From the NCBI RefSeq assembly GCF_030013595.1, contig NZ_CP122768.1: 64,000 nt of DNA; one strand, 5' to 3'. The translations under genes were made by a program, and so were the position numbers. Shown piece by piece: positions 22,723 through 32,186 of this stretch; position 1 is the stretch's first letter, and each line of letters starts with the position of its first letter. The notes under the pieces are model-generated. The model searched no databases. It saw only the letters and a program-made list of their open reading frames with translations, and was not told where the DNA came from. Origin of the DNA: Escherichia coli (GTDB lineage: Bacteria; Pseudomonadota; Gammaproteobacteria; Enterobacterales; Enterobacteriaceae).

Positions 22723-22738
22723 TTTAACATTAATGCCA

Positions 22739-22763
22739 AAAACCGGGGAAACCCGGTTTTTTT
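22739..22763 (+). terminator. trpS Rho-independent terminator
   Basis: Hairpin aaccgggg-aaa-cccggtt followed by a T run. Confidence 0.8.
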
Positions 22764-22832
22764 ATCCTCATTTGCAATAATCCGAAAAAATGTGAAGCGT
22801 CTCGCCGTTTCCACATCTCGCAGTTGCCACTT

Positions 22833-22852
22833 ATCTTCATTTTTATGAAGAT
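22833..22852. promoter_or_regulatory. perfect inverted repeat ATCTTCAT-N4-ATGAAGAT about 30 bp upstream of yhfZ (candidate operator)
   Basis: 8-bp perfect arms read directly from the sequence; followed by TAAATATTCA (22855..22864). Confidence 0.35.
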
Positions 22853-22881
22853 ATAAATATTCACTTTATTGAAAATTTACT

Positions 22882-23787
22882 ATGCGTCGAACGTTTATCA
22901 AAAAAGAAGGCGTCGTCATCACGACACTGGCCCGTTATTTGTTGGGTGAAAAGTGCGGTAATCGACTGAAAACCATAGATGAACTGGCAACTGAATGCCG
23001 TTCATCCGTTGGCCTGACGCAGGCCGCGTTGAAAACGCTGGAATCAAGCGGAGCGATACGGATAGAACGCCGTGGGCGTAATGGCAGTTATCTGGTGGAA
23101 ATGGATAACAAAGCATTGCTGAGTCATGTGGATATCAACAATGTGGTGTGCGCGATGCCCTTGCCCTATACCCGTTTGTACGAAGGCCTGGCGAGCGGAT
23201 TGAAAGCCCAATTTGATGGCATTCCTTTTTACTATGCGCACATGCGCGGCGCGGATATTCGCGTGGAGTGTCTGCTTAATGGCGTGTATGACATGGCGGT
23301 GGTTTCCCGACTGGCGGCGGAAAGTTATCTCACGCAAAAAGGGTTATGCCTCGCGCTGGAGCTGGGGCCGCACACCTACGTTGGCGAGCACCAGTTGATT
23401 TGCCGTAAAGGCGAGTCCGCAAACGTGAAGCGCGTGGGGCTGGATAACCGTTCGGCGGATCAGAAAATCATGACCGATGTCTTTTTTGGCGATAGTGATG
23501 TGGAACGTGTCGATCTCTCTTATCACGAGAGTTTACAACGCATTGTTAAAGGCGATGTCGATGCGGTTATCTGGAACGTGGTGGCGGAAAACGAACTGAC
23601 CATGCTGGGATTAGAAGCGACGCCGCTCACAGACGATCCGCGATTTTTACAGGCCACCGAAGCCGTGGTTTTGACGCGAGTCGATGATTACCCGATGCAA
23701 CAATTGCTGCGTGCAGTTGTTGATAAACAGGCCCTGCTTGCCCATCAACAACGAGTGGTCTGTGGGGAACAGGAACCCAGTTATTAA
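22882..23787 (+). CDS. yhfZ: putative transcriptional regulator YhfZ (N-terminal winged-helix-like region)
   Basis: 301 aa; first gene of the yhf cluster as in E. coli. Confidence 0.85.
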   Translation: MRRTFIKKEGVVITTLARYLLGEKCGNRLKTIDELATECRSSVGLTQAALKTLESSGAIRIERRGRNGSYLVEMDNKALLSHVDINNVVCAMPLPYTRLYEGLASGLKAQFDGIPFYYAHMRGADIRVECLLNGVYDMAVVSRLAAESYLTQKGLCLALELGPHTYVGEHQLICRKGESANVKRVGLDNRSADQKIMTDVFFGDSDVERVDLSYHESLQRIVKGDVDAVIWNVVAENELTMLGLEATPLTDDPRFLQATEAVVLTRVDDYPMQQLLRAVVDKQALLAHQQRVVCGEQEPSY

Positions 23788-23803
23788 ACCAAAGGCATCT
23801 GAA

Positions 23804-24166
23804 ATGGAAACCAGACTCAACCTGCTTTGCGATGCAGGCGTTATTGATAAGGACATCTGCAAAGGCATGATGCAGGTCGTCAACGTACTGGAAACAGAGT
23901 GTCATCTACCGGTGCGCAGCGAGCAAGGAATGATGGCGATGACACATATGGCGAGCGCACTGATGCGCAGTCGCCGTGGTGAAGAAATAGAGCCGCTGGA
24001 CGCCGAATTGCTGGCAGAACTGGCGCAATCCAGCCACTGGCAAGCCGTTGTGCAATTGCATCAGGTGTTGTTGAAGGAATTTACACTGGAAGTTAACCCG
24101 TGTGAAGAAGGCTATTTGCTGGCCAACCTTTATGGATTATGGATGGCTGCTAACGAAGAGGTTTGA
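23804..24166 (+). CDS. yhfY: YhfY, small PRD-like protein, 120 aa
   Basis: ATG at 23804 (METRLNLLCDAGVIDKD...); ORF track extends upstream into yhfZ. Confidence 0.8.
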   Translation: METRLNLLCDAGVIDKDICKGMMQVVNVLETECHLPVRSEQGMMAMTHMASALMRSRRGEEIEPLDAELLAELAQSSHWQAVVQLHQVLLKEFTLEVNPCEEGYLLANLYGLWMAANEEV

Positions 24167-24196
24167 AGCTCCCGACAAATCCACGTCGCACAACCT

Positions 24197-24220
24197 AAAT
24201 ATTCAAAAAAATGAATATTT
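24197..24220. promoter_or_regulatory. perfect inverted repeat AAATATTCA-N6-TGAATATTT 30 bp upstream of yhfX (candidate operator)
   Basis: 9-bp perfect arms; a third ATTCA half-site follows at 24222..24226. Confidence 0.4.
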
Positions 24221-24249
24221 AATTCAAGGAACAGAAACGAGGCAACAAG

Positions 24250-25413
24250 ATGTTTGTAGAAGCATTGAAACGCCAGAACCCGGCGCTAATTTCCGCCGCA
24301 CTAAGCTTGTGGCAAAAGGGCAAGATCGCCCCGGACAGCTGGGTGATCGACGTGGATCAGATACTGGAAAACGGTAAGCGGCTGATTGAGACGGCGCGGC
24401 TTTACGGCATTGAACTGTATCTGATGACCAAGCAGTTTGGTCGTAATCCGTGGCTGGCGGAAAAACTGCTGCCATTAGGCTACAGCGGCATTGTGGCGGT
24501 GGATTACAAAGAGGCGCGAGTCATGCGCCGCGCCGGTTTGCCGGTGGCGCATCAGGGGCATCTGGTACAAATCCCTTGTCATCAGGTTGCTGACGCCGTT
24601 GCACAGGGCACCGACGTCATCACCGTGTTTACTCTCGACAAAGCGCGGGAAGTTTCTGCGGCAGCGGTGAAGGCCGGACGTGTCCAGTCTGTGCTGCTAA
24701 AAGTTTATAGCGACGCTGATTTTCTTTATCCGGGGCAGGAGAGCGGTTTTGCCCTCCAGGTGTTGCCGGATATTGTCGCCGAAATCCAGAATCTGCCGGG
24801 GCTACATTTGGCGGGACTTACCCATTTCCCTTGCCTGCTTTGGGATGAGGCTGCCAGGAAAGTTTTGCCGACACCGAATCTTCACACGCTGGTACAAGCA
24901 CGGGATCAACTGGCGAAATCTGGTATTGCGATTGAGCAACTGAATGCGCCTTCAGCGACCAGTTGCACTTCGCTGCCGATGCTGGCGCAATACGGTGTGA
25001 CTCATGCCGAACCCGGTCATGCGCTGACGGGCACTATTCCGGCAAACCAGCAGGGCGATCAGCCTGAACGTATCGCGATGCTTTGGTTAAGTGAAATTTC
25101 CCACCATTTCCGTGGCGACAGCTACTGCTACGGCGGCGGTTACTACCGTCGTGGTCACGCGCAACATGCGCTGGTGTTTACGCCAGAAAATCAAAAGATT
25201 ACTGAAACCAATCTCAAAACTGTGGATGACAGCAGTATCGACTACACCCTGCCGCTGGCAGGCGAGTTTCCGGTAAGCAGTGCAGTAGTGCTCTGTTTTC
25301 GCACGCAGATTTTTGTCACCCGTAGCGATGTGGTGCTGGTGTCTGGTATTCATCGTGGCGAACCGGAAATCGTCGGTCGTTATGACAGCCTCGGCAACCC
25401 TCTGGAGGCGTAA
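24250..25413 (+). CDS. yhfX: YhfX, alanine-racemase-fold (fold-type III) PLP enzyme, substrate unknown
   Basis: 387 aa; N-terminal TIM-barrel-like region with candidate PLP lysine (LYLMTKQFG). Confidence 0.85.
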   Translation: MFVEALKRQNPALISAALSLWQKGKIAPDSWVIDVDQILENGKRLIETARLYGIELYLMTKQFGRNPWLAEKLLPLGYSGIVAVDYKEARVMRRAGLPVAHQGHLVQIPCHQVADAVAQGTDVITVFTLDKAREVSAAAVKAGRVQSVLLKVYSDADFLYPGQESGFALQVLPDIVAEIQNLPGLHLAGLTHFPCLLWDEAARKVLPTPNLHTLVQARDQLAKSGIAIEQLNAPSATSCTSLPMLAQYGVTHAEPGHALTGTIPANQQGDQPERIAMLWLSEISHHFRGDSYCYGGGYYRRGHAQHALVFTPENQKITETNLKTVDDSSIDYTLPLAGEFPVSSAVVLCFRTQIFVTRSDVVLVSGIHRGEPEIVGRYDSLGNPLEA

Positions 25414-26640
25414 ATGGCGCGATTTGTGGTGTTAGTGATTGATAGCTTTGGCGTAGGGGCAATGAAAGATGTCACGTTGGTGCGTCCGCAGGATGCCGGG
25501 GCGAATACCTGTGGTCACATCCTGAGCCAGTTGCCGCATTTGCAGCTATCAGCGCTGGAGAAGCTGGGGCTAATCAACGCATTGGGTTATGCACCAGGTG
25601 ATATGCAACCGTCAGATTCCGCAACCTGGGGGGTGGCAGAACTGCAACATGAAGGTGGCGATACCTTTATGGGGCATCAGGAAATTTTAGGCACGCGTCC
25701 GTTACCACCGCTGCGGATGCCTTTTCGCGATGTGATTGACCGTGTTGAGCAGGCATTAGTTTCCGCTGGCTGGCAGGTTGCGCGCCGTGGCGAAGAGTTA
25801 CAGTTTCTGTGGGTCAATCAGGCGGTTGCGATTGGCGATAATCTCGAGGCGGATTTAGGCCAGGTCTATAACATCACCGCCAATCTCTCTGTGATCTCCT
25901 TTGACGACGCAATCAAAATTGGTCGTATCGTGCGTGAGCAGGTACAGGTCGGTCGGGTCATTACATTTGGTGGCCTGTTAGCGGACAGCCAGCGCATTCT
26001 CGATGCCGCAGAAAGTAAAGAAGGGCGATTTATTGGTATCAACGCGCCGCGTTCTGGCGCTTATGACAACGGCTTCCAGGTCGTGCATATGGGCTACGGC
26101 GTCGATGAGAAAGTACAAGTGCCGCAAAAACTGTATGAAGCGGGCGTGCCAACCGTGCTGGTGGGTAAGGTGGCGGATATCGTCAGCAATCCTTATGGCG
26201 TGAGCTGGCAAAACCTGGTGGATAGCCAGCGGATTATGGATATCACCCTCGACGAATTTAACACGCATCCGACGGCGTTTATTTGCACCAATATCCAGGA
26301 AACCGACCTCGCTGGTCACGCGGAAGACGTCGCACGTTATGCCGAACGTTTGCAGGTCGTTGACCGTAACCTTGCCCGGCTTATTGAGGCGATGCAGCCA
26401 GATGATTGCCTGGTCGTGATGGCGGATCACGGTAACGATCCGACCATTGGTCACAGCCACCATACCCGCGAAGTGGTGCCAGTGCTGGTTTATCAGCAAG
26501 GGATGGTCGCTACGCAGCTCGGTGTGCGCACCACGCTTTCTGATGTGGGGGCTACCGTATGTGAAGTTTTCCGCGCGCCACCGCCACAAAATGGTCGCTC
26601 TTTTCTTTCCTCCCTCCGGTTTGCAGGAGACACCCTATGA
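25414..26640 (+). CDS. yhfW: YhfW, phosphopentomutase-like metalloenzyme
   Basis: 408 aa; start abuts the yhfX stop. Confidence 0.85.
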
Positions 26641-27515
26641 GTTTTGATCCGACGGGTTACACCCTCGCCCATGAGCATCTGCATATTGATCTCTCCGGCT
26701 TTAAAAACAACGTGGACTGCCGCCTTGATCAGTATGCGTTCATTTGCCAGGAGATGAACGACCTGATGGCCCGGGGCGTGCGTAATGTGATTGAGATGAC
26801 CAACCGTTACATGGGGCGCAATGCGCAATTTATGCTCGATGTAATGCACGCGACGGGGATCAACGTGGTGGCCTGCACCGGTTATTACCAGGACGCGTTT
26901 TTCCCGGAACATGTGGCGACCCGCAGCGTGCAGGAACTGGCGCAGGAGATGATCGATGAAATTGAACAGGGTATCGATGGCACGGAACTGAAAGCCGGGA
27001 TCATCGCGGAGATCGGCTCCAGCGAAGGGAAGATTACGCCGCTGGAAGAGAAGGTATTTATTGCCGCCGCGCTGGCACATAACCAGACCGGACGCCCGAT
27101 CTCCACGCATACGTCGTTCAGCACGATGGGGCTGGAGCAACTGGCTCTGTTGCAAGCCCACGGGGTTGATCTTTCGCGCGTCACCGTTGGTCACTGCGAT
27201 CTGAAAGACAACCTCGACAACATTTTGAAGATGATCGATCTCGGCGCGTATGTGCAGTTCGACACCATCGGCAAGAACAGTTACTACCCGGACGAAAAGC
27301 GCATTGCGATGCTCCACGCGCTACGTGACCGTGGTTTGCTGAACCGCGTCATGCTGTCGATGGATATTACGCGCCGCTCCCATTTAAAAGCCAACGGTGG
27401 TTATGGCTATGACTATTTATTGACCACCTTTATTCCGCAATTGCGCCAGTCAGGATTCAGTCAGGCCGATGTGGATGTGATGTTACGTGAAACTCCCTCT
27501 CAATTTTTCCAATAA
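26637..27515 (+). CDS. php: phosphotriesterase-homology protein (amidohydrolase superfamily, binuclear metal centre)
   Basis: 292 aa; N-terminal HxH metal motif ([12 protein letters not shown]); ATGA overlap with yhfW. Confidence 0.9.
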
Positions 27516-27525
27516 GGACAGACTC

Positions 27526-27879
27526 ATGAAAAAGATTGGTGTTGCAGGCTTACAGCGTGAGCAGATTAAAAAAACCATTGAAGCGACGGCTCCTGGCTGT
27601 TTTGAAGTTTTCATTCACAACGACATGGAAGCGGCAATGAAAGTGAAATCCGGGCAACTGGATTACTACATCGGCGCGTGTAATACCGGTGCGGGCGCGG
27701 CATTGTCGATTGCCATCGCGGTGATTGGCTATAATAAAAGTTGCACCATTGCCAAGCCGGGCATTAAAGCGAAAGACGAACATATCGCCAAAATGATCGC
27801 CGAAGGGAAAGTGGCGTTTGGGCTTTCCGTTGAGCACGTCGAACATGCGATTCCGATGCTGATTAACCATCTGAAATAA
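27526..27879 (+). CDS. yhfU: YhfU, small protein of unknown function, 117 aa
   Basis: ATG at 27526 with AAGGA Shine-Dalgarno; ORF track extends upstream into php. Confidence 0.8.
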   Translation: MKKIGVAGLQREQIKKTIEATAPGCFEVFIHNDMEAAMKVKSGQLDYYIGACNTGAGAALSIAIAVIGYNKSCTIAKPGIKAKDEHIAKMIAEGKVAFGLSVEHVEHAIPMLINHLK

Positions 27880-27890
27880 AAGGCACGACT

Positions 27891-29195
27891 ATGGATCTGT
27901 ATATTCAGATTATCGTGGTGGCGTGCCTGACGGGTATGACATCGCTTCTGGCGCATCGCTCGGCGGCCGTTTTTCATGACGGTATCCGCCCGATCCTGCC
28001 GCAACTGATTGAAGGCTATATGAACCGTCGCGAGGCGGGGAGTATCGCTTTTGGTCTGAGCATTGGTTTTGTGGCCTCGGTGGGGATCTCGTTTACCCTG
28101 AAAACCGGGCTGCTCAACGCATGGTTACTCTTTCTTCCTACCGATATCCTCGGCGTACTGGCGATAAACAGCCTGATGGCGTTTGGTCTTGGCGCTATCT
28201 GGGGCGTGTTGATCCTTACTTGCCTGTTGCCGGTAAACCAGCTGCTGACCGCGCTACCGGTGGATGTATTAGGTAGCCTGGGGGAATTAAGCTCACCGGT
28301 GGTTTCAGCTTTTGCACTGTTCCCGCTGGTGGCGATTTTCTACCAGTTTGGCTGGAAGCAAAGTCTGATCGCCGCCGTGGTGGTACTGATGACCCGTGTG
28401 GTGGTAGTGCGCTATTTCCCGCATCTCAATCCGGAATCCATCGAAATCTTTATTGGCATGGTGATGCTGCTGGGGATCGCGATAACTCACGACCTGCGTC
28501 ATCGTGATGAAAATGATATTGATGCCAGCGGGCTTTCGGTGTTTGAAGAACGCACGTCGCGGATTATCAAAAACTTACCGTATATCGCCATCGTGGGAGC
28601 GCTGATTGCCGCCGTTGCCAGCATGAAGATTTTTGCTGGCAGTGAAGTGTCGATCTTCACACTGGAGAAAGCATATTCCGCAGGCGTAACGCCGGAACAA
28701 TCACAAACGCTGATTAACCAGGCAGCTCTGGCGGAATTTATGCGCGGGCTGGGTTTTGTACCGTTGATTGCCACCACCGCGTTAGCCACTGGTGTGTATG
28801 CAGTTGCGGGCTTTACCTTTGTTTATGCGGTGGGCTATCTCTCGCCGAATCCGATGGTTGCAGCGGTATTAGGCGCAGTGGTTATTTCGGCGGAAGTCTT
28901 GCTGCTTCGTTCGATCGGCAAATGGCTGGGACGCTACCCGTCGGTACGTAATGCGTCGGATAACATCCGTAACGCCATGAATATGCTGATGGAAGTGGCG
29001 CTGCTGGTCGGTTCGATTTTCGCAGCAATTAAGATGGCGGGTTATACCGGATTCTCTATCGCAGTTGCCATTTACTTCCTCAACGAATCCCTGGGCCGTC
29101 CGGTACAGAAAATGGCGGCACCAGTCGTAGCCGTAATGATCACCGGTATTCTGCTGAATGTTCTTTACTGGTTTGGCTTGTTCGTTCCGGCTTAA
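27891..29195 (+). CDS. yhfT: YhfT, polytopic inner-membrane protein (putative transporter)
   Basis: 434 aa, hydrophobic throughout with about 11-12 predicted helices. Confidence 0.85.
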   Translation: MDLYIQIIVVACLTGMTSLLAHRSAAVFHDGIRPILPQLIEGYMNRREAGSIAFGLSIGFVASVGISFTLKTGLLNAWLLFLPTDILGVLAINSLMAFGLGAIWGVLILTCLLPVNQLLTALPVDVLGSLGELSSPVVSAFALFPLVAIFYQFGWKQSLIAAVVVLMTRVVVVRYFPHLNPESIEIFIGMVMLLGIAITHDLRHRDENDIDASGLSVFEERTSRIIKNLPYIAIVGALIAAVASMKIFAGSEVSIFTLEKAYSAGVTPEQSQTLINQAALAEFMRGLGFVPLIATTALATGVYAVAGFTFVYAVGYLSPNPMVAAVLGAVVISAEVLLLRSIGKWLGRYPSVRNASDNIRNAMNMLMEVALLVGSIFAAIKMAGYTGFSIAVAIYFLNESLGRPVQKMAAPVVAVMITGILLNVLYWFGLFVPA

Positions 29196-29206
29196 GGAAG
29201 GCACCT

Positions 29207-30292
29207 ATGAAGACGTTTCCTCTGCAAAGCCTGACGCTTATTGAGGCGCAGCAAAAGCAGTTTGCGCTGGTGGACAGCATTTGTCGTCATTTTCCCGGGA
29301 GCGAGTTTCTTGCTGGCGGTGATTTAGGCTTAACGCCGGGGCTAAACCAGCCGCGCATTACCCAGCGTGTGGAACAGGTGCTGGCTGATGCATTTCACGC
29401 ACAGGCCGCGGCGCTGGTGCAGGGCGCGGGTACTGGCGCGATTCGTGCGGCGTTGGCGGCTTTGCTCAAACCGGGGCAGCGTCTTCTGGTGCATGACGCG
29501 CCTGTTTACCCGACGACTCAGGTCATTATTGAGCAGATGGGGCTGACGCTTATCACTGCTGATTTCAATGACCTGTTGGCACTGAAGCAGGTTGTCGACG
29601 AGCAACAACCAGATGCCGCGCTGGTGCAGCATACGCGCCAGCAGCCGCAGGACGGGTACATTCTGGCAGATGTGCTGGCAACGTTGCGCTCGGCTGGCGT
29701 TCCTGCATTAACCGATGACAACTATGCGGTGATGAAAGTGGCGCGAATTGGCTGCGAATGCGGGGCAAATGTCTCGACTTTTTCCTGCTTCAAGCTGTTT
29801 GGGCCGGAGGGTGTTGGCGCGGTGGTAGGTGATGCCGATGTTATTAGTCGGATTCGCGCCACGCTCTATTCCGGCGGCAGCCAGATTCAGGGCGCTCAGG
29901 CGCTGGAAGTCTTGCGTGGGCTGGTGTTTGCGCCAGTGATGCACGCGGTGCAGGCGGGGGTATCTGAACGGTTGCTGGCTTTGCTTAACGGCGGCGCGGT
30001 GGCGGAAGTGAAAAGCGCCGTCATTGCCAATGCACAGTCGAAGGTATTGATTGTGGAGTTTCATCAGCCGATTGCCGTCAGAGTGCTGGAAGAGGCGCAG
30101 AAACTCGGTGCCTTGCCTTACCCGGTTGGTGCAGAGTCGAAATATGAAATCCCGCCGCTCTTTTATCGACTTTCCGGAACGTTTCGCCAGGCGAATCCGC
30201 AGTTAGAACATTGCGCGATTCGCATTAACCCAAATCGCAGCGGTGAAGAGACGGTGCTGCGGATTTTGCGTGAGAGTATTGCCAGTATTTAA
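29207..30292 (+). CDS. yhfS: YhfS, putative fold-type I PLP-dependent enzyme
   Basis: 361 aa; candidate PLP-lysine region STFSCFKLFG. Confidence 0.85.
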   Translation: MKTFPLQSLTLIEAQQKQFALVDSICRHFPGSEFLAGGDLGLTPGLNQPRITQRVEQVLADAFHAQAAALVQGAGTGAIRAALAALLKPGQRLLVHDAPVYPTTQVIIEQMGLTLITADFNDLLALKQVVDEQQPDAALVQHTRQQPQDGYILADVLATLRSAGVPALTDDNYAVMKVARIGCECGANVSTFSCFKLFGPEGVGAVVGDADVISRIRATLYSGGSQIQGAQALEVLRGLVFAPVMHAVQAGVSERLLALLNGGAVAEVKSAVIANAQSKVLIVEFHQPIAVRVLEEAQKLGALPYPVGAESKYEIPPLFYRLSGTFRQANPQLEHCAIRINPNRSGEETVLRILRESIASI

Positions 30293-30333
30293 TCTTGTGC
30301 ATGATGTTTTCGAAAAGAATGCAGAAATAAATA

Positions 30334-30357
30334 CGCCCTCGGGTAACCCCGAGGGCG
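30334..30357. terminator. hairpin between yhfS and yhfL (likely yhfL terminator, bidirectional)
   Basis: 10-bp perfect stem cgccctcggg/cccgagggcg with 4-nt loop; T-rich on the minus-strand downstream side. Confidence 0.65.
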
Positions 30358-30398
30358 TCAGGCAATTAAACCGGTGTTAGCCGATTTCTGTCAGAGAC

Positions 30399-30566
30399 TT
30401 ACTGTGCAGTAGGACCGCAACCGCCAATGATTTTAGAAATAGAAATTGCCGGGTGCAGCAGGTAGTCGTAAGAGCAGTTCTTATCACGGTTTTCAATATG
30501 ACCAGTACATGCAGTTAACGTAGCCAGTACTGCGCCTACCAGTGCAACTTTAATAAATTTGTTCAT
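30399..30566 (-). CDS. yhfL: small lipoprotein YhfL, 55 aa (below ORF-track threshold)
   Basis: Hand translation MNKFIKVALVGAVLATLTACTGHIENRDKNCSYDYLLHPAISISKIIGGCGPTAQ*; lipobox LTAC. Confidence 0.85.
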   Translation of the reverse strand: MNKFIKVALVGAVLATLTACTGHIENRDKNCSYDYLLHPAISISKIIGGCGPTAQ

Positions 30567-30812
30567 TTACATTCCCTATGTATTATATATTAATTAATAT
30601 TCATTGATTATATGAATATAAGCAGACTGCTCATTAAGAACGATACAGGAATATTTAATTAGCGTCAGTGAGTGAATGGCTTAATTTTGTAAGTCGCTGT
30701 AACGGTGAATATAACCCATTAGCAGATAATATTTATTAAGGGGTTATGTTTTATTTGCTGAATATATAAAAAGAGTCATTAAGAAGGCCAGAATTCTCTG
30801 GCCCGGGTTACA

Positions 30813-32186
30813 TTAATGGTTGGAGAACCAGTTCAGTTTATCGCGCAGGCCAACAACACGACCAATAATAATTAGCGATGGACTGTTCATTTGCTGCGCC
30901 AGTTCGCCCAGCTGTGTGAGCGTACCGTCAATCACGCGCTGCGTGACTGCTGTTCCGTTTTCGACAATTGCCACCGGCATTTCGCCAGGCATACCGTGTT
31001 CAATCAGCTTTTGCTGAATAGTCGCAGCCTGATTCAGCCCCATATAGAACACCAGCGTTTGTTTTTCTGCCGCCAGGTTTTCCCAGTCCAGCTCGCCACC
31101 AGTTTTTAAGTGTCCGGTAATTAAGCGCACGCTCTGGGCATAATCGCGATGCGTGAGCGGAATACCCGAATAGGCAGAGCAACCAGAAGCTGCGGTAATA
31201 CCCGGAACCACCGAGAACGGAATACCCGCGTTGCACAGTGTTTCCAGCTCTTCTCCGCCACGCCCGAAAATAAACGGATCGCCGCCTTTCAGACGCACCA
31301 CGCGTTTACCTTTTTGCGCTTCCCGCAGCAAGATCTGGTTAATCTCTTCCTGCGGTACGCAGTGGTATCCCGCGCGTTTGCCGACGAAAACGCGATCAGC
31401 ATCGCGGCGTACCAGATTCATAATATCGTCAGAAACCAGACGGTCGTAGACCACCACATCAGCCTGCTGAATTTGTTGCAGACCTTTCAGTGTCAGCAGT
31501 CCGGCATCGCCCGGACCTGCACCAACCAGCACCACTTCACCGCGATGGTCGAGCGGTTCGTTGATTAACTGTTCGGTGGTTTCAGTAATGGCTTTCTGAT
31601 CGTTGTTGGCCAGCGACTGCGCCAGGCGGTCGTTAACGAACAATTTCTCCCAGAAACGGCGACGCTCACCCATCGTGGCGAACTGTTGTTTCACTCGCCC
31701 GCGTAATTGCCCGGCGTATTTCGCTACCTGGCCCAGATGTAACGGCAGCTGTGATTCGAGTTTTTCGCGCAACAGGCGCGCCAGAACCGGAGAGGTGCCG
31801 CCAGAGGATACCGCGACCATGAGCGGTGAGCGGTCAATAATCGACGGCATAATAAAGCTGGCGGCTTTCGGCGCATCGACCACGTTACAGAAGATGCGAC
31901 GAGCTTCAGCGGCTTCACTGACGCGCTGGTTAAGCGCGTCATCATCCGTCGCAGCAATTGCCAGCCAGCAGGTGTCGAGAAGGCTTTCATCAAATGGCCC
32001 TTCGACGAGGGTTAACATGCCTGCATCTGCCCATGCGGTGAACTGTGGAATAAACGCTAATGCATTCACCGTTAAGCGAGCGCCTGCGTCTAACAGCAAC
32101 CTTGCTTTGCGTTCCGCGACATCACCACCGCCGACAATCAGACAGTCGCGATCGCGTAATTGACAAAATATAGGCAAATGATCCAC
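30813..32186 (-). CDS. cysG: siroheme synthase (multifunctional)
   Basis: 457 aa; N-terminal NAD-binding GGGDVA region and C-terminal methyltransferase domain. Confidence 0.95.

Follow-up and report, generated by a model that had tools for sequence, protein, structure and literature searches.

The yhfS–yhfL junction of a rarely sequenced Escherichia coli lineage: very probably an unoccupied ancestral site of the frlABCDR block

The yhfS–yhfL junction and its predicted terminator

The window analysed here is a stretch of 64,000 nucleotides from Escherichia coli (contig NZ_CP122768.1). In it, the convergent genes yhfS and yhfL lie side by side, a short spacer being all that separates them, which is the arrangement of an empty site at the place where K-12 carries the frl genes (Table 1). 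The YhfS product has YhfS-like_C and aminotransferase domains and the YhfL product has the DUF4223/YhfL domain (Pfam). An earlier note, made from the sequence alone, had placed the yhfS stop at 30292, the yhfL stop at 30399, and a 106-bp gap between them; ORF calls and the RefSeq annotation of an identical stretch return exactly these coordinates. The identical stretch is that of strain HCP5S3_I2 (pig faeces, UK), which matches the window at 100% across the junction and for which RefSeq gives the same gene names.

Table 1. Features at and around the yhfS–yhfL junction, with positions counted from the first letter of the window.
Feature	Position	Strand	Description	Evidence
yhfZ-yhfY-yhfX-yhfW-php-yhfU-yhfT-yhfS	22882..30292	+	Left flank of the junction, all frames intact	ORFs, RefSeq (identical strain and close relatives)
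yhfS	29207..30292	+	PLP-dependent aminotransferase-fold protein, 361 aa; stop codon 30290–30292	ORF, RefSeq, Pfam
yhfS–yhfL spacer, 106 bp	30293..30398	no strand	Very probably the unoccupied ancestral site where K-12 has frl	
Segment restricted to empty-site alleles	30293..30322	no strand	TCTTGTGCATGATGTTTTCGAAAAGAATGC; conserved in outgroup Escherichia	
T-rich tail of terminator	30323..30332	-	ATTTATTTCT	Terminator scan
Intrinsic terminator stem-loop of yhfL (predicted)	30333..30358	-	11-bp stem (9 G–C pairs), 4-nt loop	Terminator scan, RNA fold
yhfL	30399..30566	-	Small DUF4223 protein of 55 aa, 100% identity to that of K-12	ORF, RefSeq, Pfam
cysG	30813..32186	-	Start of the conserved right flank cysG-nirC-nirD-nirB-tsgA	ORFs, RefSeq

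Open reading frames of at least 20 aa in the spacer were limited to frames of 39–46 aa that extend into the neighbouring genes, in line with the earlier reading of the spacer as without coding capacity. When K-12 frl sequences were searched against the 64-kb window by tblastn and blastn, only chance matches were obtained (E > 0.04), and the absence of frl suspected at the junction thus holds for the whole window at both the protein and the DNA level.

The spacer contains a hairpin that reads CGCCCTCGGG-TAAC-CCCGAGGGCG on the plus strand at 30334..30357. It had been described as a perfect 10-bp hairpin, which it is, and it reaches 11 pairs when A30333–T30358 is included. The minus-strand sequence is ACGCCCTCGGGGTTACCCGAGGGCGT, with ATTTATTTCT directly after it; the hairpin starts 40 nt past the yhfL stop codon. 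The RNA fold is much more stable than that of shuffled sequences (z = −5.2). In an alignment of eight Escherichia sequences, a small sample, stem pairing was seen in 96.6% of cells compared with 33–67% in slid controls; two stem positions change on both sides, and one pair occurs as G–C, A–U, and U–A. By these sequence features the hairpin is the conserved predicted rho-independent terminator of yhfL. It is present in frl-occupied and empty alleles alike, which rules it out as a scar of the indel or junction. On the plus strand the sequence after the hairpin (CAGGCAATTAAACC) has no T-tract, and termination of the yhfS transcript at this position is therefore not predicted.

The terminator stem of K-12 (L001 9012–9037), like that of the divergent strain E69, has a U–C mismatch at one position; the stem is perfect in strain 114, which is frl-positive, and in all empty-site alleles. 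No Rfam family matched the spacer, the sole match being a sub-threshold hit to SgrS at 30657–30737 (E = 0.53), and a scan of 30100–30900 returned no promoter-like site.

The frl block of K-12 and the trpS–yhfL interval

The frlABCDR locus of K-12 has been described by Wiame et al (2002, J Biol Chem 277:42523, as cited in PMC3505186). Its gene order, for which the earlier note had placed frl between yhfL and yhfS, is indeed yhfS-frlR-frlD-frlC-frlB-frlA-yhfL. K-12 and the window have the same flanking genes, encode identical YhfL proteins, and share both the final 76 bp of the spacer and the terminator of yhfL, but K-12 carries ~ 5.2 kb of extra DNA and lacks window bases 30293–30322. The extra block runs from directly after the yhfS stop codon to a position matching ~ 30313–30323 of the window. 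Besides frlR-D-C-B-A it takes in the promoter region of frlA and, adjoining yhfS, a boxC-like and a REP repeat. Alignment to K-12 and other E. coli, which the earlier note had proposed for locating the edges of the indel, places them at 30292|30293 on the yhfS side and at ~ 30313–30323 on the yhfL side. With K-12, homology ends exactly at 30293 and restarts at 30323; with E69 it restarts at ~ 30314, about 9 bp farther than with K-12.

The K-12 block has its own non-coding flanks, 151 bp beside yhfS (the boxC-like and REP repeats) and ~ 215 bp upstream of frlA. Neither flank is present in the window, where a search showed no similarity to K-12 locus L001 3758–8995. Conversely, local alignment of 30293–30322 to these flanks detected no significant counterpart: 817 of 2,000 shuffled sequences scored no worse against the right flank, and 1,999 of 2,000 against the left. 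The idea that this segment survives in diverged form beside the K-12 boundary was rejected, as the alignment scores were no better than those of shuffles.

The earlier note had also suggested looking for repeats at the junction, and here the search came back empty: no terminal direct or inverted repeats and no target-site duplication pair the two ends of the K-12 frl block (L001 3758 to ~ 8960). The block contains no integrase or transposase genes, only frlR, D, C, B, and A. At 53.9%, its GC content is close to that of the flanks (52.6–53.7%), and its GC3 is similar to that of the neighbouring genes. A mobile island or transposon in K-12 was rejected on these grounds, there being no terminal repeats, no mobility genes, and no deviant composition, and a foreign origin of frl finds no support in base composition, since GC and GC3 do not differ from those of the neighbours. 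From the alignments we conclude that frl is an apparent insertion of ~ 5.2 kb that replaced ~ 20–30 bp of the old spacer. No trace of how the block arrived is visible in repeats, mobility genes, or GC and GC3.

The junction had been taken to mark the boundary of a variable locus next to the yhf cluster. It does form one edge of such a locus, and the adjoining yhf cluster varies as well: of 5,426 complete genomes, 343 were without a match to it. Judging from the gene content compared, the interval from trpS to yhfL behaves as a two-module variable region in which yhf and frl appear to vary independently. K-12 has both modules and the window has yhf only, whereas cattle strain 114 (locus L092) has frl only. 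Strain 114 has a boxC-like repeat directly after trpS, then a REP repeat and frlR. Its frl genes occupy the same chromosomal interval, with the same yhfL terminator as in the window, but the modules are reversed, frl without the yhf cluster as opposed to yhf without frl; this state was seen in one genome, and its frlD is annotated as a pseudogene with an internal stop.

Some further differences from K-12 were noted in the window. The yhf cluster (22740–30293) is 95.8% identical to K-12, compared with ~ 98.2% for the surrounding 56 kb, and the most divergent kilobase of the window lies in yhfS (93.0% at 29001–30000). The YhfS protein is still 96% identical to that of K-12, so most of the changes in yhfS are synonymous. 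In the trpS–yhfZ spacer (22723–22881), the window lacks ~ 130 bp present in K-12 just after trpS, the additional K-12 sequence being made up of two REP-like palindromic units; both the window and K-12 have retained the terminator hairpin of trpS, AAACCGGGGAAACCCGGTTTTTTT. At the left end of the window, positions 1–836 fail to align properly with K-12 on account of a real IS200-like insertion. This is a 705-bp IS200-family element at 132–836, located between the stop of envZ and the terminator of pckA, with a transposase on the minus strand at 235–693 (Pfam Y1_Tnp, E = 8e-37). The element is missing at the same site in K-12 and in the otherwise 100%-identical HCP5S3_I2, so that the window must derive from a separate isolate or a very close relative of that strain.

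Occupied and empty sites in E. coli and beyond

We estimated the frequency of the two states in 5,426 complete E. coli genomes, using the 1.2-kb junction as the query and counting frl when at least 80% of the K-12 block was covered. The junction was contiguous in 2,107 genomes and split into two places in most others. The K-12 frl block was found in 3,297. The two classes sum to 5,404 and amount to a near-clean two-state polymorphism with ~ 61% frl and 39% empty. In the frl-negative genomes that were sampled, matches to the K-12 block were confined to short dispersed repeats and the terminator of yhfL. Strains 536 and ATCC 25922 belong to the empty-site group. Both have the same convergent order of yhfS and yhfL-cysG, a spacer of ~ 106 bp, and no frl, but over the 1.2-kb junction they are only ~ 94–95% identical to the window.

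Absence of frl is a known and common accessory-operon polymorphism that has already been published. Strains of phylogroup B2 lack the frl operon and its transporter (PMC5996543), and this absence has been termed a hallmark of B2 (bioRxiv 10.1101/2025.09.14.675865).

With the two clonal pig isolates set aside, the best match to the window was 98.9% over 19.6 kb of core genes and 98.5% over the yhf cluster; on these identities the strain appears to come from a rarely sequenced lineage. Its six nearest relatives (AF40, SC418, 2012C-4221, AR_0067, AST215, and ST2747) all have an empty site. The spacer is 106 bp long in all of them except 2012C-4221, which has a 110-bp variant, and its sequence is identical to that of the window in AF40, SC418, AR_0067, and AST215.

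To look beyond E. coli, we scanned one genome per species for yhfS and fetched 80 loci, each including flanks of up to 10 kb; 52 of the loci were tabulated. Among these 52 loci, frl adjoined yhfS only in strain E69. Directly after yhfS came yhfL and/or cysG in E. whittamii, Escherichia sp. MOD1-EC7003, SCPM-O-B-8794, and E. albertii, and the same empty arrangement was seen in many Citrobacter, Enterobacter sp., Buttiauxella, Superficieibacter, and Cedecea. SCPM-O-B-8794 is 93% identical to the window and hence not E. coli proper. The spacers of these four non-coli Escherichia are 101–108 bp long and colinear with that of the window from one stop codon to the other, bases 30293–30322 included. 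In E. albertii NBRC 107761, E. whittamii Sa2BVA5, MOD1-EC7003, and SCPM-O-B-8794 the hairpin also lies in the same place, with compensatory changes in the stem. These loci are 89–93% identical to the window overall, so that the sequence differs while the architecture is alike.

'E. coli' E69 (CP089930.1, locus L006, 5133–10457) is a divergent Escherichia, ~ 92.5% identical to the window, and was counted as a separate species in the scanned collection. All other non-coli Escherichia that were sampled have an empty site. In E69, frl sits where it does in K-12, between the same boundaries, and it is ~ 93% identical to K-12 frl, a divergence similar to that of the E69 flanks. The insertion is therefore probably old and its gain not a simple event on a single branch. 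Either it had a single, old origin or it may have moved between lineages together with its flanks. E69 leaves the reading of the site in the window unchanged.

Direction of the event

We consider it very probable that the junction in the window is an unoccupied ancestral site, in a lineage that never received the frlABCDR block. The direction follows from bases 30293–30322: a deletion could not have regenerated these ancestral bases, which argues for an ancestral empty site and for frl as an insertion. The earlier note had left open whether the lineage never acquired frl or lost it cleanly. Of these, never acquired is favoured, because the outgroup sites are empty with a colinear spacer, E69 aside, and because the window keeps bases that frl carriers lack; clean loss is disfavoured. 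Vertical inheritance of the empty site would be the simplest reading for the lineage of the window. In the proposed course of events, an uninterrupted spacer between convergent yhfS and yhfL would have been passed down from the common ancestor of Escherichia; the lineage of the window would never have gained frlABCDR, while K-12-type strains would have taken up the block immediately after the yhfS stop codon. The yhfL terminator would be the sole functional element of the spacer, retained in both allele types.

Several other histories could lead to the same junction. The empty allele might have been restored without a scar after secondary loss, if homologous recombination across yhfS and yhfL-cysG had brought in the sequence of an frl-free donor. 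The yhf cluster is unusually divergent from K-12, and its alleles are rare, with only two of the 5,426 genomes matching at 99% identity or above; rare and divergent alleles imply that the region is recombinationally mosaic, and frl is old enough to be common to the divergent E69 lineage. We nevertheless regard such a replacement as improbable: the six nearest relatives, whether chosen by identity of the flanks or of the yhf cluster, are all empty, most of them with an identical spacer, no frl-positive close relative was seen, and the scenario calls for an extra event without supporting evidence. That an illegitimate or repeat-mediated deletion excised frl from a K-12-like allele is more improbable still, to the point where we give it very little weight. 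The dispersed boxC-like and REP repeats at the yhfS-side end of the K-12 allele could promote rearrangement, but no direct repeats bracket frl in K-12. Such a deletion cannot recreate the 20–30 bp (30293–30322) common to the window, E. albertii, E. whittamii, and other Escherichia, and the junction in the window, inspected for a deletion scar, retains no residual sequence of the 151-bp left or the ~ 215-bp right flank. A collapsed or mis-joined assembly, in which frl would be missing from the window as an artefact, can practically be dismissed, as the same contiguous junction is present in all 2,107 empty-site genomes, 536 and ATCC 25922 included, and in other species.

A different possibility concerns the two alleles as such. 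Occupied and empty sites might represent an old polymorphism that arose once, extends across the boundaries of Escherichia lineages, and is kept at intermediate frequency by diet- or host-dependent selection on the use of Amadori products. If so, the raised divergence of yhfS (93% against a background of 98%) would reflect long-term linkage to the indel. We think this unlikely, if less so than replacement or deletion. Across lineages, no support was found for a link between yhfS alleles and frl status: yhfS of K-12 is nearer to that of the window (93%) than to that of E69 (89%).

Fructoselysine and psicoselysine are Amadori products of heated food. Published frl-negative strains are predicted not to grow on either compound (PMC5996543; bioRxiv 10.1101/2025.09.14.675865), and the inability to use these Amadori products has been used to separate B2-type strains from other E. 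coli. By inference from gene content, the prediction for the strain from which the window derives is the same, with neither uptake nor catabolism of fructoselysine or psicoselysine. Beyond annotation the significance is slight. What the junction adds is modest: it gives the probable direction of the event, with the empty site ancestral and frl the insertion, and it maps the edges of that insertion, exactly to the base next to yhfS and with a margin of ~ 10 bp towards yhfL.
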